Source: a virus. From it: a stretch of DNA of 57,992 nucleotides. Both the position numbers and the translations under genes were made by a program. The DNA lies in the IMG/VR virus record IMGVR_UViG_3300033141_003442, one strand, 5' to 3'. Below the pieces are notes generated by a model. That model searched no databases. It was not told the origin of the DNA and saw only the letters and a program-made list of their open reading frames with translations. This document shows positions 11,753-57,992 of the stretch, piece after piece (the first letter of the stretch is position 1; each line of letters starts with the position of its first letter).

Positions 11753-12270
11753 TGCCTGCTGAATTGCTTATAAAGGCTTGTGATGCAACCCACAGTAATG
11801 AGGTAAAAGACCTGCGGGGTTGTTATAAAAAAGGTTATGTGGTTGTAATTAAGCCTGATGGTTGGAAATGGGGCAAAGAAGAACTAAACAAGGAAAAGTT
11901 TTACATTGTCCGAGTTAAGGATGCTAATCCTGAAGACTTGCAACATCTAATACAATTCCATGAAATAAGCCTTGGAACTAGATACCATGCTATGTCAGAT
12001 AAACTCGGTGTTTTTGTTAGCAGTCCAGACAAGGATGCTGCCGAGAGTGAGTGTTTGAAGAAATGTCAACTTGTGGCTCAAGAGTTAACTCGCTTTGGGA
12101 TTAATGTAGGTGAAGAAGACTATAATATTAAAATTAAAGAAGAACCAGAAATCCATACAATAGCACGGAGGCGGTATAAAATTGATATTAGTGGAATGGA
12201 AGATAGTTTAAAGAAAGGCATAATTGAGGTAAATGCAAAAGATTTAAAAATCATTGACCAGAGACAATAA
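11752..12270 (+). CDS. Hypothetical protein (172 aa)
   Basis: ORF with SD GGAAGGAGG; start overlaps the upstream stop. Confidence 0.5.
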   Translation: MPAELLIKACDATHSNEVKDLRGCYKKGYVVVIKPDGWKWGKEELNKEKFYIVRVKDANPEDLQHLIQFHEISLGTRYHAMSDKLGVFVSSPDKDAAESECLKKCQLVAQELTRFGINVGEEDYNIKIKEEPEIHTIARRRYKIDISGMEDSLKKGIIEVNAKDLKIIDQRQ

Positions 12271-13868
12271 TGGCAACTGAAGTAGTAAAAGTGATTGACC
12301 CAGACAATGGCACGGGAGCGGATTATACCTCTCTTTCTGCTTGGGAAGCAGGAGAGGAGAAAGATTTACAACAGGCAGATGAGATAGCTGTTGCCAAGTG
12401 CCGATGCACAGGTGGAAGTGCAGATACTGATGCTGTGGTTATTGATGGTAGTTGGAATCCAGATGCTACTCGTTACATTAAAATCTGGACTGACCCAAGT
12501 GAAGGATATAGGCATGATGGGAAATGGAATGACAGTAAATACAGGTTAGTTAATAATGCTGATTCTTATGCACTTGATGTTAATGAGCCTTATACGAAAA
12601 TTGAGGGACTTCAAATCAGACAAACAGGGCCTGGTGATTACAATCACGCTTTGGATGTTAGGAATGCTTCTTATTTTGAAGTTTCATATACTATCGTTCG
12701 TGGATGCAACGGAAATAATGCAAAGGGGATTTATGGAAGTGTATCTGAAGGTCCTGTAAAACTTTGGAATAACATTGTTTATGATTTTAATAGCTCAGAT
12801 GGAATAGTATTAAGTATATCCACGGCAGGACAAAAAGCTTATGTTTATAACAACACAGTTTATAATTGCAATATAGGTATTTATTCAGGAGGATACCAAG
12901 ATATTGTAGCTAAAAATAACCTCGTTCAAGACTGCACTGATGGATATGAAGGTGATTTTGACTCTGATTCTGATTACAACATCTCAGACATCTCTGGCGA
13001 CGCACCAGGTGCAAATAGTAAGACCTGCACAGTTTCCTTTGTTGATGAAGCTAATGATGATTTCCATCTTGCATCCAGTGATACTTGTGCAAAGGATTCA
13101 GGTGTAGATTTATCCTCTGACACAAACTTGGCCTTTTCAGATGACATAGATGGCGAGACACGGAGCGGGACTTGGGATATTGGAGCGGATGAGTATGTAG
13201 TGGCTGGAGGCTTAATCAAAATAATGGATGAGACTGTTTCAATATCAGAGACTTTAATAAGAAGACTTTATGCAAATCGTTTTATCGGAGAGACAGTTGC
13301 AATTACTGAAACTATGCCAAGGAGAGGATATTCAAATCGTTTAATAAACGAGACAATTACTATATCTGAAGGAATATTAAGAAGGTTAAGGTCAAATAGG
13401 ATTATAAACGAGACAATATCAATTGCTGAGGCAATATCTCGTAGAGCATTCTCAAGTAGAGTTATAAATGAAACATTAAGCATAGCTGAAGCAGTGCTTA
13501 AGCGATTAAGGGCTGTAAGGATTATCAGTGAGACTGTATCTGTATCTGAAAGCTTAGTAAGAAGATTACGGTCGATAAGGATAATTAGTGAGACAATTGG
13601 TATAACAGAGAACTTTGTCCGTTCATGTGTTGCTACATTAGTAAAAATAATGAATGAAGTCATATCAATTACAGAAAATTTAGTTAAAATTAAAACTTTT
13701 ATTGAAACAGTAAGTGAAGTAACAATAGGTAAAATAATTTTTCATGCTCATCGTGCATCTATAGGGTTTAAAAATTTTTATTCATCTATAGAATTTAAGA
13801 AGTTTTGTTCGTCTATAAGTTTTAAAAAGTTTATGGCTAAAATAAGCTTTAAAAGAAAAGGAGATTAA
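12270..13868 (+). CDS. Beta-helix (pectin-lyase-fold-like) protein with C-terminal array of 20-aa tandem repeats; candidate receptor-binding or depolymerase protein
   Basis: NN/N-x-G-rich beta-helix-like middle region (YNNTVYNCNIGIYSGG); nine imperfect 20-aa repeats ET-x-SI-x-E...RR...R-I-N. Confidence 0.5.
   Translation: MATEVVKVIDPDNGTGADYTSLSAWEAGEEKDLQQADEIAVAKCRCTGGSADTDAVVIDGSWNPDATRYIKIWTDPSEGYRHDGKWNDSKYRLVNNADSYALDVNEPYTKIEGLQIRQTGPGDYNHALDVRNASYFEVSYTIVRGCNGNNAKGIYGSVSEGPVKLWNNIVYDFNSSDGIVLSISTAGQKAYVYNNTVYNCNIGIYSGGYQDIVAKNNLVQDCTDGYEGDFDSDSDYNISDISGDAPGANSKTCTVSFVDEANDDFHLASSDTCAKDSGVDLSSDTNLAFSDDIDGETRSGTWDIGADEYVVAGGLIKIMDETVSISETLIRRLYANRFIGETVAITETMPRRGYSNRLINETITISEGILRRLRSNRIINETISIAEAISRRAFSSRVINETLSIAEAVLKRLRAVRIISETVSVSESLVRRLRSIRIISETIGITENFVRSCVATLVKIMNEVISITENLVKIKTFIETVSEVTIGKIIFHAHRASIGFKNFYSSIEFKKFCSSISFKKFMAKISFKRKGD
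13229..13710 (+). repeat. About nine imperfect 60-nt tandem repeats inside CDS 12270..13868
   Basis: Periodic repetition in both nucleotide and protein sequence; also generates the spurious antisense ORF 13268..13663. Confidence 0.7.
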
Positions 13869-32044: not shown

Positions 32045-32073
32045 ATGATAAAACAAGTAATTTATTTTGTCAA
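32045..32073 (-). promoter_or_regulatory. Sigma70-like promoter TTGACA-N17-TATCAT (minus strand)
   Basis: Plus-strand tgtcaa 32068-32073 and atgata 32045-32050, 17-nt spacer; part of a 35-bp element also present at 39935-39965. Confidence 0.45.
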
Positions 32074-32607
32074 GGGTCTAATTTTTTTAAGTATAATTTT
32101 TTTCCCTTCCTGTGTTGTCCTGATGCCTGTGATAAAGTAATTAACCTTTCTTAACTGTTTCCACCATTTCGTTGCTATTTCACTGTCTGCCATGGTTATT
32201 GAATGAACCTTATTGCTGTCATAGGCACTTATCACTCGCAATAGTGCATTATATTCCATATCATTAGGGTTAGGTAGTTTGCAATTTTTTACTTTAAATC
32301 TATTATAAGGGTTTGGCTGAGGTTCTTCTGGATGTTTGTGGTGATATTTAATTCTAATTTTATTTATGACTTGTTGTGAGGATAATATACCTTTTTTTAA
32401 CTTATCATATAAAAACAAACAGAAAGCTGCAAAACAATTTTTCTTGGCTCTAAGCTTGCAAAGGTTTTCCACTGCCTCAATGAATTGCAGGTCTGTATAA
32501 TCATCACTAATAGTAATCAACCTTATCATTTCTTTCTCATGAACCACTACATCATTTTTTTTGGCAATATCCTTAAAAATTTCAAGCCTGCTGTCTGAGT
32601 TAGTCAT
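32062..32607 (-). CDS. Hypothetical protein (181 aa)
   Basis: ORF with SD GGAGG. Confidence 0.5.
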   Translation of the reverse strand: MTNSDSRLEIFKDIAKKNDVVVHEKEMIRLITISDDYTDLQFIEAVENLCKLRAKKNCFAAFCLFLYDKLKKGILSSQQVINKIRIKYHHKHPEEPQPNPYNRFKVKNCKLPNPNDMEYNALLRVISAYDSNKVHSITMADSEIATKWWKQLRKVNYFITGIRTTQEGKKIILKKIRPLTK

Positions 32608-32610
32608 TAT

Positions 32611-33039
32611 TCAGCCTCCTTGGTTGAAGGTTATGTATCCATTTTCTCTTAACCAAATTGCCATTTTGGCTCGTGCATTAGCTTCAATTTTTTCTATAGC
32701 ATACCATTCTGTAATATTTAATCTATCATAGTAATAATCGAAACCATCTTCATTTTTTTCTATTCTTAAAAATCCCAGTTCTGGCAAATAAAATGGCAAC
32801 CATTCACCCAATTCTGAGTTAGTAGGAGCTTTAATTACTTCTCTATAACTAGGGTTGCAATTTCTTAGCATCTGCCAAAACTTTTTGTCCCGTTCTCTTT
32901 CAAGCAGCAATTGGACTCTATCCCCATCTTTATCATGATAAACTACCCAAAACCAGCCTGGCTCTTTTTGAGGAAACCCTAATTCTTTTAGCCTCCTACT
33001 TAATTCCAAACTAGTTACTTCTTTTTCTGCCCAATGCAT
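32611..33039 (-). CDS. Hypothetical protein (142 aa)
   Basis: ORF in co-directional block. Confidence 0.5.
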   Translation of the reverse strand: MHWAEKEVTSLELSRRLKELGFPQKEPGWFWVVYHDKDGDRVQLLLERERDKKFWQMLRNCNPSYREVIKAPTNSELGEWLPFYLPELGFLRIEKNEDGFDYYYDRLNITEWYAIEKIEANARAKMAIWLRENGYITFNQGG

Positions 33040-33040
33040 T

Positions 33041-33316
33041 TTATCCCTCCTTATTAGGGTATAAATTATTCATAAGATTTAATCCGGGATATGTTTCAAG
33101 TTCTTTATATGTAGGTTCTTTTCCTTCCGCAATTCTGTTCATGATTGCATATATTTCATCATATTTTCGGCGTGCTTCTGCTGTTTGCTTCCTTAATGTT
33201 TCATATTTTTTGATATTCCGTTCTTTTAACAACTCAGCTCTTAATTTTTGCCAAGCTTCTCGGTATTTTTGCATAATAGTATGTGCTTGTTTAAAACTTA
33301 TTTCATTTTCTTTCAT
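33041..33316 (-). CDS. Hypothetical coiled-coil protein (91 aa)
   Basis: ORF with SD AAAGGAGG. Confidence 0.5.
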   Translation of the reverse strand: MKENEISFKQAHTIMQKYREAWQKLRAELLKERNIKKYETLRKQTAEARRKYDEIYAIMNRIAEGKEPTYKELETYPGLNLMNNLYPNKEG

Positions 33317-33368
33317 ATTTGCCTCCTTTATTCAAAAAAATTTCAAGTCTGCTGTCTGGATTGGTTAT
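33306..33368 (-). pseudogene. Vestigial duplicated gene start (paralogous to the 5' end of gene 32062..32607, ATG replaced by ATA)
   Basis: About 47 nt including GGAGG and the first 11 codons (ITNPDSRLEIF vs MTNSDSRLEIF) are about 80% identical to 32571-32620. Confidence 0.3.
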
Positions 33369-33652
33369 TGTTTATCCTCCTTATCCTTCATTTGTTTTCT
33401 ACATTCCAAATAAGATTGGCAAAAGAGTTCTAAAGTAAATTTATCTTGCTCGCTTAAAAAATCTACTTGTGCCAAATCCCGCCCAAATTTTTGGTAGCTT
33501 AATTGAGTAAAACTATTATCAAGATGTCTTCTACTATTTAAATTGCTAGTAATAGAAAATATTGGTCTCCCATTTCCATCCCTGTGAAACTGTAAGGACA
33601 AAAGTGCATCGGTATGTGCTTTGTGTTTGTATTTATATTTTGGCCATTTCAT
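33365..33652 (-). CDS. Hypothetical protein (95 aa)
   Basis: ORF track. Confidence 0.45.
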   Translation of the reverse strand: MKWPKYKYKHKAHTDALLSLQFHRDGNGRPIFSITSNLNSRRHLDNSFTQLSYQKFGRDLAQVDFLSEQDKFTLELFCQSYLECRKQMKDKEDKQ

Positions 33653-33855
33653 TATTTACTCCTTTCATTATAAATTGAATATATTGTTTCAGGTGGGGTT
33701 GCAGTTGAATTTTGGCGTCCCATTAATGGACGAATAAGAATTTCAAACAAAGGAGCAAGCAGGGGCATTTCCTTTTTTAATTCTATCCATGCAGTGCTCT
33801 GTAAATTTCCTGAAGAAGATATTAGTTTTGCTATCTCTCTTTTAATTTCTTTCAT
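33652..33855 (-). CDS. Hypothetical protein (67 aa)
   Basis: ORF track. Confidence 0.35.
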   Translation of the reverse strand: MKEIKREIAKLISSSGNLQSTAWIELKKEMPLLAPLFEILIRPLMGRQNSTATPPETIYSIYNERSK

Positions 33856-34036
33856 AATTGTCTCCTTTGCTTAAACTTAAATAAGCCCTTCGGAGAAGCT
33901 TTAAATCTTGGATATATTCTGGGCAGTAGTTGTTGTTTTTTAAGGCTTCATTGTAACTAGCTTCGTTTGTAATATCTTTATAAACCTCGTGATGAAGCCA
34001 TCTTAAAGCAGCTTCAAAAGCTATTTTGTAATCCAT
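33842..34036 (-). CDS. Hypothetical protein (64 aa)
   Basis: ORF track. Confidence 0.35.
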   Translation of the reverse strand: MDYKIAFEAALRWLHHEVYKDITNEASYNEALKNNNYCPEYIQDLKLLRRAYLSLSKGDNYERN

Positions 34037-34045
34037 TTTTACCTC

Positions 34046-35173
34046 CTATATATCCTTTAAAATGCCTGAAATGACAGGTTTAATATAGCTATCGTATAAA
34101 CCGTCTCTTTCTTCTTCAGTAGTCGTCCAGACTTTTTCAGGTTTGGGATATTGAACGCCTGGCTTATCCTCCCACCGCCGTTGAGCAAGGAATGTGCTGG
34201 GATATATAATATATTCTAGTTCCATATTAGGCCATTCATACTTTATGTAATTATCTAAGCCTTCCATTATTTGGTTAAATAAAGCTTCATCAGGATTTAT
34301 TTTTAACCACTCTGCTAAAGCTCCTACTTTGTTTACTTTTCTGGGATAGTTTAGCCAAAACTTCTCAAATAGAATTCGTTGCTTTTTAATATTTTGTAGT
34401 AGTAAATTATCTGGTGGTTTATAGGGCGGAAAAGGTTGTTGTTTTTCTTTTCCACTGATGAATTCACTTTTCTTATTTGAATCTTTAGAGCTATATAGAT
34501 TATTATTTATATATTTTTTATTATTTTCTTTAAAAGAGTTATTTAAAGAAGATTTTATATCTGTAGTATTCTTTGTAGTATTCTTTGTATTTGTCCTAAC
34601 TTCAGGAGAAGGAGGTGGTAACTTTGAAGTAGGGGGGTGGTTACTTTGAAGTAAAGAGGTATTTACTTCGGAATTAGGAGGTGGTGATTCTGAAGTAGGA
34701 AGGTGGTTATCTTGAGGTAAAGAGGGGGTTTTTTTAGATTTGCGTTGGTCGTATGTAATTTTAAGGACATTGTCAATAATTGGTTCTATAAACATGACAT
34801 TTGAAAGTTTTAAACCTTCGTTAGTTTCTATTGTTTTAAATTCTCTTTTAACAAGTTTTAATCTTATCAAATCATCAAAAGCTCTTTTAACCTGTATTTT
34901 TGTGAAACCAAATAAATCCACATAAGACTGGTAATTCTTTTGTAATCTATCAGCTTTAAACTTTTGTCTATAACCAATTACTTCGCCTGTTTCTGGATTT
35001 CTTTCTTCAACTGGCCTATACCAAAAAACAATGTCCGCCAATAATGTTATAGCTACATGATTCACTGTTCCGTTTTGAGTTTTTATATATCTATACCAAC
35101 TTAAGGGGACAGTATTACCAGAAAATTCAACGCCAATTAGTTTTTTACATTGTTCATTTATTTCATTTCTCAT
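34046..35173 (-). CDS. Putative replication initiator / replisome organiser (DnaD-like C-terminal region) with internal low-complexity linker
   Basis: 375 aa; N- and C-terminal globular parts separated by a P/S/T-rich linker encoded by iteron-like DNA repeats; C-terminal F..FW..YP...A.WLK pattern. Confidence 0.45.
   Translation of the reverse strand: MRNEINEQCKKLIGVEFSGNTVPLSWYRYIKTQNGTVNHVAITLLADIVFWYRPVEERNPETGEVIGYRQKFKADRLQKNYQSYVDLFGFTKIQVKRAFDDLIRLKLVKREFKTIETNEGLKLSNVMFIEPIIDNVLKITYDQRKSKKTPSLPQDNHLPTSESPPPNSEVNTSLLQSNHPPTSKLPPPSPEVRTNTKNTTKNTTDIKSSLNNSFKENNKKYINNNLYSSKDSNKKSEFISGKEKQQPFPPYKPPDNLLLQNIKKQRILFEKFWLNYPRKVNKVGALAEWLKINPDEALFNQIMEGLDNYIKYEWPNMELEYIIYPSTFLAQRRWEDKPGVQYPKPEKVWTTTEEERDGLYDSYIKPVISGILKDI
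34611..34722. repeat. Five imperfect roughly 22-bp direct repeats (iteron-like) inside the replication gene; adjacent 12-bp tandem repeat at 34564-34587
   Basis: ggaggtggtaactttgaagtagg / ggggtggttactttgaagtaaag / aggtatttacttcggaattagg / aggtggtgattctgaagtagg / aaggtggttatcttgaggtaaag. Confidence 0.6.
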
Positions 35174-35243
35174 TTAACTCCTCCTGAAATATATTATGGA
35201 ATTTTTTATGGCAATTATCACATAGCACTATTAAATCTTCTTT

Positions 35244-35777
35244 TCATGTTAAATATTCTCTTCCTCTATTTTCATAGGTTTTATGGTGAACATTTAAATT
35301 TTGGTTTGAACCACATAATGAGCAAGTAGGGTTTTTCCATTTGACATATCTAGATACAACTCGCCAATAAAGGGTCTGGAGAAAATCTTTATAATTCATA
35401 CTAGATAGGATTTCTATATCCTCTTTAGTTATTAAATCAAATAATAAATAAAAATCACAAGCTGGAGTATTTTTGCCTGTCCCAAAATTTGCTAGTTTTC
35501 TCTGTTGTCTTTCTTTTTCTCTTTTCTGGCGTTCTAATTCGGCTTTTTCTTCTCTTTCTTTGCGTTTTTCGTATCGTATTCTTTTACATTCAGGGCAAAT
35601 TGCATTTTTGAAATCCCATTTATTATTTACAATTATAGTTTTCCCACAAATTGAACAAGCGATTTTATATTGTCTTAGTTTTAAAAATTCTCTTACTTTA
35701 TTAAAAACTTCTGTTTGATTTACTTCAATAGGCACTAATAAACAGGCTTCTTTTAATGCCTCTTCCCATTTCTCCAT
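35244..35777 (-). CDS. Zn-ribbon protein with C-terminal HNH-like motif
   Basis: CSICGK...CPECK and C-terminal CSLCGSNQNLNVHHK; coiled-coil K/E/R-rich middle. Confidence 0.4.
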   Translation of the reverse strand: MEKWEEALKEACLLVPIEVNQTEVFNKVREFLKLRQYKIACSICGKTIIVNNKWDFKNAICPECKRIRYEKRKEREEKAELERQKREKERQQRKLANFGTGKNTPACDFYLLFDLITKEDIEILSSMNYKDFLQTLYWRVVSRYVKWKNPTCSLCGSNQNLNVHHKTYENRGREYLT

Positions 35778-35828
35778 TTTAATTCCCTAAAAATAAAAAA
35801 CCCACACAGACAGAACAAGACTTTTTTG

Positions 35829-35894
35829 ACATGGTGAAAGGCCAAGGTGTCTTGCTTGTCCGTGCGGGCTTGGTTTCAAAATGCCTTTCACCAT
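35829..35894. promoter_or_regulatory. 12-bp perfect inverted repeat (ATGGTGAAAGGC ... GCCTTTCACCAT) with 40-nt GC-rich spacer, just downstream of a candidate minus-strand promoter
   Basis: Arms at 35831-35842 and 35883-35894; candidate promoter TTGACA-N17-TAAGAA at 35904-35932 (minus); related GC-rich motifs CCGTGCGGGC / CCCGTGCAGGC. Confidence 0.45.
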
Positions 35895-36012
35895 ATTGAT
35901 TTATTCTTACCAGATTATTTTTAACTTGTCAATATCAAAAATGCCTACACAAGCAAACAGGTGAGAAAGGGAGGAGAAAAGGTGGGACCTGTCTGCCCGT
36001 GCAGGCTGTGAT

Positions 36013-38689: not shown

Positions 38690-39203
38690 TTAAATACCTC
38701 CATCCATTCAAAAAATTTAAAAATGCCTGAAAGCCCTTATTCAGGTCATCAATAAAAATAGTGTCAACAATAGCAGGTTTCCCGTCTTTTTTAAGCCTTA
38801 CCGCCGCCACTTTATTAGGTTTCAATTCTTCAGGCAGAGCATAATAATAAGCACTTAACTGCATTATCCATGCCTTGTTAGCTACCTCAGAGGTTTTTAA
38901 ATCCCATAGCCATTTTTCACCTTTCCATTCAACCAACATATCTGGATGCCCGATGTAGCCAAACTGCTTATGTTTAACTTCAAATTCAGCCTTGATTAGT
39001 TTCACAGGTAACAAGTTTCTAAAGGATTGAATATATCCTTCCAACTCTCCATATTCAGGCACAAACAAATTTTCAAGTTCAGCTACACAATACTTATGAA
39101 TTAGCTTGCCTCTTTCACAAGCTAGCTCTAGCGTATTGCTTGAAACAGGAAATTCTAGGAAAGGTGATATTACTTCTGTAACTCTGGGATAACGCATAAT
39201 CAC
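38679..39203 (-). CDS. PD-(D/E)xK-family nuclease (recombination exonuclease-like)
   Basis: Motif GHPDMLV...LWDLKTS (D...D-x-K) ; co-located with recT. Confidence 0.45.
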   Translation of the reverse strand: MIMRYPRVTEVISPFLEFPVSSNTLELACERGKLIHKYCVAELENLFVPEYGELEGYIQSFRNLLPVKLIKAEFEVKHKQFGYIGHPDMLVEWKGEKWLWDLKTSEVANKAWIMQLSAYYYALPEELKPNKVAAVRLKKDGKPAIVDTIFIDDLNKGFQAFLNFLNGWRYLNAD

Positions 39204-53143: not shown

Positions 53144-54331
53144 ATGACTATTACGGACGGGAAAGGTGATTTAATTTATTCCAGTAGAGATTTAAAAAGA
53201 AAATTTCCAGAACAAGGTTTTTATAACCATATCAAAATTGATACTAGTGGTATAGTTTTAAGTAATAGTTGCCGTCCTTTTTTAGATATAGATGGGAATG
53301 CTATAAATGATGGTAGTATTCCTGATAGTAAAATAATAGATGTAGATTTTGCCAAAATAAAAAATGTTTTAATAGATACAGCACAAATTAAAGATGCTGC
53401 CATTACAACTGCTAAGATAGCCGACCTTGCCGTAACAAATGCCAAAATAGCAAATGCTGCTATTACTAATGCCAAAATAGCTAATTTAGCCGTAACAAAT
53501 GCTAAAATAGCTGACTTATCTGCTTCAAAAATCAATGCAGGATATATTGTTACTACTCAATTAGAGGCAGGTTCTAATCCTTCCACTGGATGTATTTTGG
53601 ACGGTAATGGTTTACGAGCCTATAAATCAGGCACAAAGATGGTGGATATAAGCGAAGACCCATTTTTTAGAGGTGTAGGGCATTTTGGGGATGATAATTT
53701 TTTTATAGAAATAGGGAATGATACTTATCCAGGATATATTTTGTTTGAAAAAGATAGTGAATACAAAACGCAGATTTATATAGCAGGGACAAATTATAAT
53801 GAGTTATATATTACTGCAAAAAGTAGAATACACTTTTTCCCTGGAAGCGCAGTGCGGTTTAGGGTCACTGATACAGAAAATATTTCAATCACTCTTCGTC
53901 CTTGGTCAGATGCCGCTTCTGACCTTGGAACATCCTCTTATGCATGGAACAATGTTTATTATTGTGTGGCAAATGATGTTTGCTCGCTTGGAGTAGTAGA
54001 AGAAATATCAAATCCACTTGAACTGCTTAAAAATATTAAGGTCAGTAAAGACAAATATACCCCAAAAGAAATCCCTAAGGCAGATTACAAAACTCTACCC
54101 AAATTTATTAAAACGGTAAAGTATAGTGATTTAAAAAAGAGTAAGAAAAACTTTAAAGAACATTTACAAAGCGTTTTATCTAAAAATGCAGAAGTAACTT
54201 ATGAGGATGATAAAAAAGTAACTGTAAAAATAGAGGCATTAGATATAACAGCAACAATAAGTCTATTATTAGGGGCTATAAGACAATTAAGTGAGAAGAT
54301 AGAAGCATTAGAAAGGGGTAATATACAATGA
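53144..54331 (+). CDS. Tail fibre protein with tandem A/T-K-I-A repeats
   Basis: Repeats AAITTAKIADLAVTNAKIANAAITNAKIANLAVTNAKIADL; C-terminal coiled-coil-like region. Confidence 0.55.
   Translation: MTITDGKGDLIYSSRDLKRKFPEQGFYNHIKIDTSGIVLSNSCRPFLDIDGNAINDGSIPDSKIIDVDFAKIKNVLIDTAQIKDAAITTAKIADLAVTNAKIANAAITNAKIANLAVTNAKIADLSASKINAGYIVTTQLEAGSNPSTGCILDGNGLRAYKSGTKMVDISEDPFFRGVGHFGDDNFFIEIGNDTYPGYILFEKDSEYKTQIYIAGTNYNELYITAKSRIHFFPGSAVRFRVTDTENISITLRPWSDAASDLGTSSYAWNNVYYCVANDVCSLGVVEEISNPLELLKNIKVSKDKYTPKEIPKADYKTLPKFIKTVKYSDLKKSKKNFKEHLQSVLSKNAEVTYEDDKKVTVKIEALDITATISLLLGAIRQLSEKIEALERGNIQ
53389..53520 (+). repeat. Tandem roughly 30-nt coding repeats in the tail fibre gene
   Basis: Repeated gccgtaacaaatgccaaaatagc-like units; these create the spurious antisense ORF 53221..53535. 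Confidence 0.65.
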
Positions 54332-57572: not shown

Positions 57573-57992
57573 ATGCCAGCACCAGTAGCTGCAGCAGGAA
57601 TAATTGGAGCGAGCACTTTAGGTGCAGCAGCTTTGAGTAAAGGAGGCCAAAAAGCAGGTAAAGTTCCTAGACCTTCAGCAGAAGAAAGGTCACTTCAAAA
57701 AGCTTTATTACCTTTATTATTATCTTCTTTATATGAAAAACCTGAAGATGCTTTACGTGCTCCTAAAAGTTGGACACAAGAAGAATGGGAAGCTTATTTA
57801 AGGGAAACAGGTATCCCTGTTGATTTAGTTAAATCAGGTATTTTAAGTAAGTATAAAAAAACAATTGATGAGATTGAGAAAATGATTGCTGGTATGTCAG
57901 AAAGAGAAAAAGAAGAGCTTGCACCAATTATTGAAGATTATGAAAGATATAAAAAATCTTTAGAACCAGGGTTAAAATCAGTTCCATTATCG
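57573..57992 (+). CDS. N-terminal portion of the junction-spanning ORF (continues at window position 115-480)
   Basis: ATG 57573 with SD AGGGGGTGA; open to the window end, in frame with ORF 4..480 through the duplicated 114 bp. Confidence 0.6.
   Translation, partial: MPAPVAAAGIIGASTLGAAALSKGGQKAGKVPRPSAEERSLQKALLPLLLSSLYEKPEDALRAPKSWTQEEWEAYLRETGIPVDLVKSGILSKYKKTIDEIEKMIAGMSEREKEELAPIIEDYERYKKSLEPGLKSVPLS

Follow-up and report, generated by a model that had tools for sequence, protein, structure and literature searches.

The replication initiator gene and its genome context

The DNA analysed (the window, 57,992 bp in length) is the genome of a phage, ~57.9 kb in size, which was assembled as a circle and has ends that overlap by 114 bp. 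It encodes a terminase, a portal, a major head protein, an endolysin, RecT and exonuclease-like proteins. The replication initiator gene, the features of which are listed in Table 1, has RecT and two exonuclease-like genes beside it. The open reading frames (ORFs) downstream of the initiator gene encode products of 64–181 amino acids that matched neither a loader nor a helicase, and the 29 ORFs scanned yielded no phage helicase, loader, primase or polymerase. No relative turned up when genome contigs were scanned for a host or for a copy integrated as a prophage. Recoding of TGA was considered as the cause of an interrupted HNH gene and was rejected, as TGA served as an ordinary stop codon in 10 of 49 long ORFs.

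The 375-amino-acid product matched the PHROG family phrog_270 ('replication initiation protein', E 7e-24) and, over residues 67–206, phrog_391 ('replication initiation O-like', E 8.4e-6). Residues 1–172 were ~40% identical to the initiators of Bacillus, Staphylococcus and Acinetobacter phages, which are annotated as 'replisome organizer and ori-binding protein', 'O-like' or 'DnaD-like'; genes for a helicase loader or a DnaB helicase come after the initiator genes of these homologues, including those of the Bacillus and Acinetobacter phages. On the evidence of these matches the product is a phage replication initiator, which agrees with the putative assignment made in an earlier note on this DNA.

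Table 1. Coordinates of the initiator gene and of the features that lie within it (for single iteron units the starting position is given)
Feature	Position	Strand	Basis or sequence
Replication initiator gene, 375 aa	34046..35173	(-)	ORF, PHROG matches, phage homologues, AF2 model
N-terminal domain, aa 1-144, predicted DNA-binding winged helix	34742..35173	(-)	AF2 model
Six 22-bp iterons	34599..34730		Coding-strand consensus AACCACCTCCCTACTTCAAAGT
Iteron unit 1	34599		ACTTCAGGAGAAGGAGGTGGTA
Iteron unit 2	34621		ACTTTGAAGTAGGGGGGTGGTT
Iteron unit 3	34643		ACTTTGAAGTAAAGAGGTATTT
Iteron unit 4	34665		ACTTCGGAATTAGGAGGTGGTG
Iteron unit 5	34687		ATTCTGAAGTAGGAAGGTGGTT
Iteron unit 6	34709		ATCTTGAGGTAAAGAGGGGGTT
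12-mer array	34560..34598	(-)	Local copy of the family-wide ACA-RAG-ANT-ACT element
AT-rich tract, predicted DNA-unwinding element	34499..34559		AT content
C-terminal domain, aa about 255-375, ILFEKFWLNYPRKV...	34049..34411	(-)	PHROG matches, module exchange, AF2

In the AlphaFold2 (AF2) model the N-terminal domain was confidently predicted (pLDDT about 90–97) and had a winged-helix fold, with the predicted recognition helix around FGFTKIQVKRA (residues 88–98). Residues 145–263, which are encoded by the repeats and the AT-rich tract described below, had a pLDDT of <50 and were disordered, and the C-terminal domain was helical and of low confidence. The repeats had been supposed to encode a linker between two halves of the protein, and the model places them there. 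Residues 194–341 matched phrog_9474 and phrog_9327 ('primosomal protein').

Searches of Pfam and NCBIfam with the initiator and with each of its halves gave nothing significant (Pfam E ≤ 0.01), and the protein fell below the thresholds of these collections for Phage_rep_O, RepA_N and the replisome-organizer N-terminal domain. A profile search of PDB sequences with the N-terminal domain produced only marginal helix-turn-helix matches. The DnaD/DnaB_2 C-terminal domain (PF07261) is present in many relatives that carry the window's N-terminal domain and had no match in the window protein, therefore only the N-terminal module is common to both. By profile criteria, the initiator cannot be filed in the Phage_rep_O, RepA_N or SPP1 organizer families.

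Two repeat arrays and an AT-rich tract inside the gene

All the repeats are located inside the initiator coding sequence, in which positions 34560–34730 encode residues 148–204. Along the direction of transcription the 22-bp repeats are followed by a 12-bp tandem repeat and then by the AT-rich tract. A period-22 array of 5.2 copies was detected at 34612–34725 by Tandem Repeats Finder, and a repeat search returned four 61-nt copies, starting at 34599 and spaced exactly 22 nt apart. When placed in register, the direct repeats form six units with an exact 22-bp spacing. Five repeats of ~22 bp had been described previously; they are real and do lie inside this gene, but the count is six and the array extends to 34730.

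Each iteron unit is composed of a C-rich spacer and a palindromic core, TTACTTcaAAGTAA, and so has internal dyad symmetry. The best copy of the palindrome is in the unit at 34643 (TTACTT-ca-AAGTAA, with 6-bp arms), and the most degenerate iteron is the unit adjoining the 12-mers. When the array was compared with itself displaced by 22, 44 and 66 nt, base identity was 0.65, 0.61 and 0.77, respectively, and ~0.3 at other shifts. These values show that three 22-mers came first and that this 66-bp block was duplicated later; the six iterons make up two 66-bp triplets, of which 34599–34664 is the closest to the 12-mers.

The six 22-mers are read in codon phases 2, 0, 1, 2, 0 and 1, and translation of the iteron core yields three different peptides (PSLPQD, LPTSE and PPNSEV). 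The use of three phases and three peptides indicates that the repeat is kept as DNA and not as protein, and selection on the peptide cannot explain it. Elsewhere in the 58-kb window, comparable periodicity was found at just two places, both with periods that are multiples of three. As alternative origins, a 27-nt repeat at 13756–13832 and a 30/60-nt repeat at 53394–53511 were considered; each was rejected on account of its period, a multiple of three, and its location in a structural-region ORF. A search of the window with the consensus, permitting ≤3 mismatches, recovered just one of the six known iterons and was replaced by a position-weight-matrix scan, in which the six units scored 22.9–29.7 bits, the next best site scored 14.9 bits and no second iteron cluster was found in the window. 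Rfam, promoter and terminator scans of the locus gave nothing above chance.

The 12-bp repeat was detected as 2.3 perfect copies at 34562–34589 (Tandem Repeats Finder). On the coding strand the array reads AAT ACA AAG AAT ACT ACA AAG AAT ACT ACA GAT, encoding N-T-K-N-T-T-K-N-T-T-D. A reading of the 12-mer as a DnaA box or DnaA-trio was dropped, as by eye there were at best five matches in nine to TTATCCACA. The DNA that follows the array is the most AT-rich in the genome: positions 34500–34559 are 92% AT, ranking first of all 60-nt windows in the 57,992-bp sequence, and 40-nt windows reach 95%. The 12-mer array is probably the sequence-specific part of an unwinding element.

Cumulative GC skew had been suggested as a check on the position of an origin. 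The peak at about 17–20 kb and the bottom at about 45 kb are indeed far from the locus, but both coincide with switches in gene orientation; as the extremes mirror the coding strand, the skew speaks neither for nor against an origin here. The skew also returned locally to about zero at 33–36 kb, reflecting the C-rich iterons. The extremes of the AT skew likewise tracked the blocks of gene orientation.

Iterons and the N-terminal domain in related phages

All six iterons are kept in the close relatives (L001–L004 and L098, with proteins 78–95% identical), and the 12-mers number two in the window and three in these relatives. Mean pairwise identity among the close relatives was 0.939 for the iteron triplet next to the 12-mers and 0.909 for the other. 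The earlier note had named relatives that keep the gene and lack the repeats as evidence against an origin; the related genomes keep both.

The wider family consisted of the window and a further 80 IMG/VR loci encoding the N-terminal domain; at an identity of ≥80% these 81 genes fell into 29 clusters. At least two tandem ACTACAGAGAAT-like 12-mers were present in 28 of the 29 clusters, in one constant frame throughout. Significant periodicity was found in the 170 nt upstream of the 12-mers in 20 of these 28 clusters (22 nt in 10, 23 nt in nine and 24 nt in one), and the order of palindrome-containing 22–24-bp repeats followed by ACTACAGAGAAT-like 12-mers is common to these 20. Most relatives have three or four iterons, compared with six in the window. 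The half-sites of the palindrome vary by lineage and include TACTT..AAGTA, TACGTT..AACGTA, TCACTTT..AAAGTGA, TGACG..CGTCA and TACCCTGCAGGG.

This variation was associated with residue 93, which lies in the predicted recognition helix (FGFTK-I-QVKRA). Where residue 93 is Ile, Leu, Val or Phe, eight of nine clusters have half-sites of the AAGT/ACTT type and none has the CG type; where it is Arg, half-sites are of the ACGT/AACG type in 12 of 16 clusters (Fisher p = 0.002, a value that carries no correction for phylogeny). Across the clusters compared, half-site and recognition-helix residue change together. The iterons and the N-terminal domain are physically linked, so co-inheritance adds to the covariation statistic. 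Two divergent clusters, L020 and L030, have both the helix SKKQVREA and the palindrome in common.

The domains have also been exchanged. The C-terminal domain of the window protein is joined to three other types of N-terminal domain in L005–L008, P0007 and L112. In the N-terminal swaps (L005–L008 and P0007 compared with the window) the iterons differ, travelling with the N-terminal domain. Taken together, the periodicity, the covariation and the module swaps suggest that the 22-mers are the sites to which the N-terminal domain specifically binds.

The 12-mer across phage initiators

To avoid selection by DNA sequence, arrays were picked out solely by the peptide that they encode (T-[EK]-x-T, two or more consecutive copies) in 20 clusters. 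The codon for the first Thr of these arrays was ACA in 63 of 63 cases. Glu was encoded by GAG in 36 of 37 cases, compared with 38% in the rest of these genes (p = 9e-14), Lys was AAG in nine of nine, and the Thr codons ACC and ACG were never used, compared with 41% elsewhere (p = 3e-25). The middle base of the third codon is free, giving Asn, Ile, Thr or Ser; across the 12-mer, positions 7 and 11 vary freely and the remaining positions are nearly invariant. Fixed synonymous sites beside a free non-synonymous site indicate that the constraint acts on the nucleotides, and the freedom is of the kind typical of a recognition motif. The tandem 12-mer had been noted as lying adjacent to the longer repeats; it is present as described, but is a conserved element and not an incidental neighbour, and it lies at a fixed distance from the last iteron.

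In a scan with the DNA pattern, at least 120 IMG/VR contigs contained the array. Among the matches listed, 63 of 120 arrays were in genes with the window's N-terminal domain family and 57 of 120 were in other winged-helix initiators with various C-terminal domains. Among cultured phages the array was present in 122 records, and the feature under the match was almost always annotated as a replication initiator; the phages concerned include those of Acinetobacter, Bacillus, Klebsiella, Staphylococcus, Erwinia, Synechococcus, Burkholderia and Geobacillus, as well as Stx-converting and other E. coli phages. Conservation of the synonymous sites spans several or more families of initiator N-terminal domain, in phages of Firmicutes, Proteobacteria, cyanobacteria and uncultured hosts. 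No description of the 12-mer element or of its architecture was found in the searchable literature, in which string searches gave only unrelated primer matches.

Comparison with known origins

An iteron origin inside the initiator gene is an arrangement that is already known, from lambda O and ori-lambda, SPP1 G38P and oriL, and pSK41 RepA. Ori-lambda lies at 39034–39160 inside gene O (PMC3349717). It has four 18-bp dyad iterons, ATCCCTCAAAACGAGGGA, which start 20, 24 and 23 nt apart and are read in codon phases 0, 2, 2 and 1; these are followed by GACA|CAAAAGACACTATTACAAAAGAAAAAAG (peptide D-T-K-D-T-I-T-K-E-K), degenerate 12-mer units that open a 38-bp AT-rich region. Lambda O also binds the single-stranded DNA of its AT-rich region, and Stx phages have six iterons to lambda's four, the four nearest the AT-rich region being bound well (PMC7466680).

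The likeness of the window locus to ori-lambda, which had been proposed from the placement of the repeats alone, extends to the whole layout. In both, the middle of the gene, between the sequences for the N- and C-terminal domains, holds at least three dyad-bearing repeats of ~18–22 bp, about two helical turns (~22 nt) apart, which are read in several frames and encode a linker, and an A-rich or AT-rich unwinding region, in the window a predicted one, adjoins the iterons on their downstream side in the direction of transcription; the two are collinear. The junctions are alike, GGGGGACA|CAAAAGACACT in lambda and GGGGGACA|AATACAGAGACT in the window family, and iteron number varies in both groups (four in lambda and six in Stx phages; six in the window and three or four in most of its relatives). 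The window locus differs in its iteron sequence, in 12-mers that are sharply tandem here but only degenerate in lambda, in an unrelated C-terminal domain and in having no P-like helicase-loader gene downstream. The window protein also has no significant Pfam match to Phage_rep_O, its similarity being to the PHROG O-like family alone (E 8e-6). The locus is probably an evolutionary relative of ori-lambda.

In SPP1, gene 38 contains oriL, which is made up of iterons and an unwinding element (PMC5737612, PMC6316719), and 356 bp suffice in vitro (PMC5737612). Here too the iterons and an AT-rich element lie in the organizer gene between an origin-binding N-terminal domain and a C-terminal domain, RecT and exonuclease genes are located upstream, and the linker repeats, AGAAACGACACG (4.6 copies of 11–12 nt), resemble the 12-mer and precede AT-rich DNA. 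However, SPP1 has these 11–12-nt repeats only, without 22-mers, it has a second binding region, oriR, in place of the single cluster of the window, and it encodes its own loader and helicase (G39P and G40P), neither of which is found among the window's downstream genes. G38P has no detectable similarity to the window protein (BLASTP E 5.9), and the latter has no NCBIfam match. The window thus has neither the loader and helicase genes nor the similarity to G38P or TIGR01714 of an SPP1-type organizer module.

In pSK41 RepA a winged-helix N-terminal domain binds Rep boxes in the middle of the rep gene itself, the linker for which the origin codes is dispensable, and a host-specific C-terminal domain binds DnaG (PMC5703833). 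The tripartite logic of N-terminal domain, origin-encoded linker and C-terminal domain is that of the window protein, which differs in having no Pfam RepA_N match, in belonging to a phage and not a plasmid, and in the sequence and length of the repeats. The 12-mers occupy the position of the 13-mers of E. coli oriC and RK2 oriV, which are short tandem repeats between initiator-binding sites and AT-rich DNA; in RK2 and F, Rep binds one strand of the repeats of the unwinding element specifically (PMC10797057). Unlike these 13-mers, the 12-mers lie in coding sequence and are conserved across phages of unrelated hosts and families of initiator N-terminal domain.

A candidate origin and the alternatives

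The earlier suggestion of a candidate iteron origin at this locus is supported by the presence of an initiator gene, of dyad repeats maintained at the DNA level and of an AT-rich tract, and by the recurrence of the arrangement in distant relatives. We consider it likely that 34499–34730 is a theta-replication origin, built like ori-lambda, which lies where the gene of its own initiator codes for the linker. On the model of lambda O, SPP1 G38P and pSK41 RepA, the winged-helix N-terminal domain would bind the palindromic cores of the six iterons, probably as dimers spaced about two helical turns apart. The resulting nucleoprotein complex would destabilise the DNA next to it, namely the 12-mer array and the tract that is 92% AT; the initiator or a host factor may hold one strand of the 12-mers, and the C-terminal domain would bring the host helicase or primosome. 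This proposed recruitment of a host helicase stands beside the finding of no phage helicase, loader or primase in the ORFs tested.

It is also conceivable, though we think it improbable, that the iterons are initiator-binding sites with a regulatory role (autoregulation, titration or handcuffing, or a fork barrier as proposed for SPP1 oriR) and that replication starts elsewhere or by recombination. Recombination-dependent replication is available to this phage, given the RecT and two exonuclease-like genes beside the initiator; G38P bound at SPP1 oriR has been proposed to stall forks (PMC3485210); and the computed data do not tell a site of initiation apart from one that only binds the initiator. 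Nevertheless, the iterons have beside them the most AT-rich tract of the genome and conserved 12-mers, lying to the same side as the AT-rich region does in lambda, as is expected of an unwinding element, and the genome has no second iteron cluster. That the repeats are only a by-product of slippage in a low-complexity linker rich in Pro, Ser and Thr, with no function as DNA, we regard as very improbable. The segment does encode a disordered linker, a duplication of 66 bp (22 amino acids) is evident and the number of 12-mers differs among close relatives, as slippage predicts. Yet 22 nt is not a multiple of three, the units are read in three frames as unrelated peptides and contain palindromes, the periods of the relatives are 22 or 23 nt in 19 of 20 cases, and the 12-mers have almost fixed synonymous sites and one free non-synonymous site. 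The linker by-product reading is largely refuted by these frame and codon analyses.

The remaining alternative concerns the 12-mers and is compatible with the main explanation of the 22-mers: the array may be mainly a patch of homology at which phage recombinases swap the N-terminal, origin-specific module and the C-terminal, host-specific module. The array is positioned exactly at the junction of the shuffled modules, one C-terminal domain is found with at least four types of N-terminal domain and one N-terminal domain with several C-terminal domains, 57 of 120 arrays found by DNA pattern, among the matches listed, are in genes with no match to the window's N-terminal family, and RecT-type recombinases are encoded nearby. 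A patch of this kind should offer uninterrupted identity, but positions 7 and 11 are free amid near-invariance, as in a recognition motif; moreover, the junction between L005–L007 and the window falls downstream of the 12-mers, and the distance from the array to the last iteron is fixed. We therefore judge that recombination is unlikely to be the main role of the array.

The conserved 12-mer is the one lead from this work that could be new. A tentative proposal, which we put forward with more doubt than belief, is that ACA-RAG-ANT-ACT is a widely shared, undescribed cis-acting core of the unwinding element in lambda-O-like and DnaD-like phage origins. A conserved surface of the initiators or a universal host replication factor would then recognise this core, probably in single-stranded form.

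Implications for phage replication

For this phage, the analysis provides a testable candidate origin, about 230 bp long, and a function for a gene that Pfam leaves without annotation. For the phages related to it, these data describe a large family of initiators in which variable palindromic iterons, an invariant 12-mer array and AT-rich DNA occur in a fixed order inside the gene, and the pairing of half-site with recognition-helix residue offers a way of predicting origin specificity and incompatibility between phages. In uncultured phages, origins could be found with the invariant 12-mer as a sequence tag. If functional, the 12-mer would represent a common step in origin opening that has no description in the searchable papers. 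If the proposed reading of the 12-mer is true, origins would be locatable by sequence alone in very many phage and prophage genomes.

Genome ends and local composition

The first 114 bases of the window were found to be an exact copy of the last 114 (positions 1-114 and 57879-57992), and the window is therefore a complete phage genome of ~57,878 bp in a circular or terminally redundant assembly. GC skew rose locally from ~-0.25 to ~0 across 33000-36000, inside a block of minus-strand genes. The rise is due to the iterons, whose coding strand is rich in C, and does not mark a switch of skew on the genome scale.

Other genes and repeats of the window

The features recorded in addition to the iterons and the 12-mer array are listed in the table. 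None of the six small ORFs that follow the initiator gene gave a match to a helicase loader or a helicase. The HNH-like gene on the other side is interrupted by an in-frame TGA (at REYLT*KEDLIVLCDNCHKKFH), where two close relatives, L002 and L003, have TGG (Trp); the resulting ORF is shortened by ~29 C-terminal residues, including the CxxCH motif. Recoding of TGA was ruled out because 10 of the 49 long ORFs in the window terminate with this codon; the interruption arose either by nonsense mutation or through an error in sequencing. Both tandem repeats in the table have periods divisible by three, and for this reason the 60-nt one is probably a protein repeat.

Further features of the window
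Feature	Coordinates	Strand	Context
Six small ORFs (64-181 aa)	32062-34036	-	downstream of initiator gene
HNH-like gene, in-frame TGA	35174-35777	-	directly upstream of initiator gene
27-nt x2.9 tandem repeat (CATCTATAGGATTTAAAAAGTTTTATT)	13756-13832		3' end of ORF 12270..13868 (+)
60-nt tandem repeat, 30-nt sub-period	53394-53511		inside ORF 53144..54331 (+), structural-gene region

The 12-mer array and the modules of the initiator

Among the matches listed, the (ACAGAGANTACT)n array was also present, in some of the IMG/VR contigs L099-L218, in initiator genes whose N-terminal domains are unrelated by profile to that of the window. In cultured-phage records (H31-H90) it was found in phages of Acinetobacter, Bacillus, Klebsiella, Staphylococcus, E. 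coli (Stx phages), Erwinia, Synechococcus, Burkholderia and Geobacillus. Similar units occur in known origins: degenerate 12-mer units open the AT-rich region of the lambda origin (L219, 39119-39160; ACA AAA GAC ACT ATT ACA AAA GAA), and the 11-12-nt repeats of SPP1 oriL (ACGACAGAGAAA...; L095, gene 38, gene positions 360-450) resemble the 12-mer of the window.

The C-terminal domain of the initiator (FEKFWLNYPRKV...) was found fused to at least four distinct N-terminal domains (L005-L008, P0007, P0017 and L112, sequences sharing this domain), each type accompanied by its own repeats. Conversely, the N-terminal domain is partnered elsewhere by DnaD-like (PF07261), Phg_2220_C (PF09524), DUF6017 (PF19481) and other C-terminal domains. 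The initiator is a mosaic, and the junction between its modules lies in the origin-coding linker.
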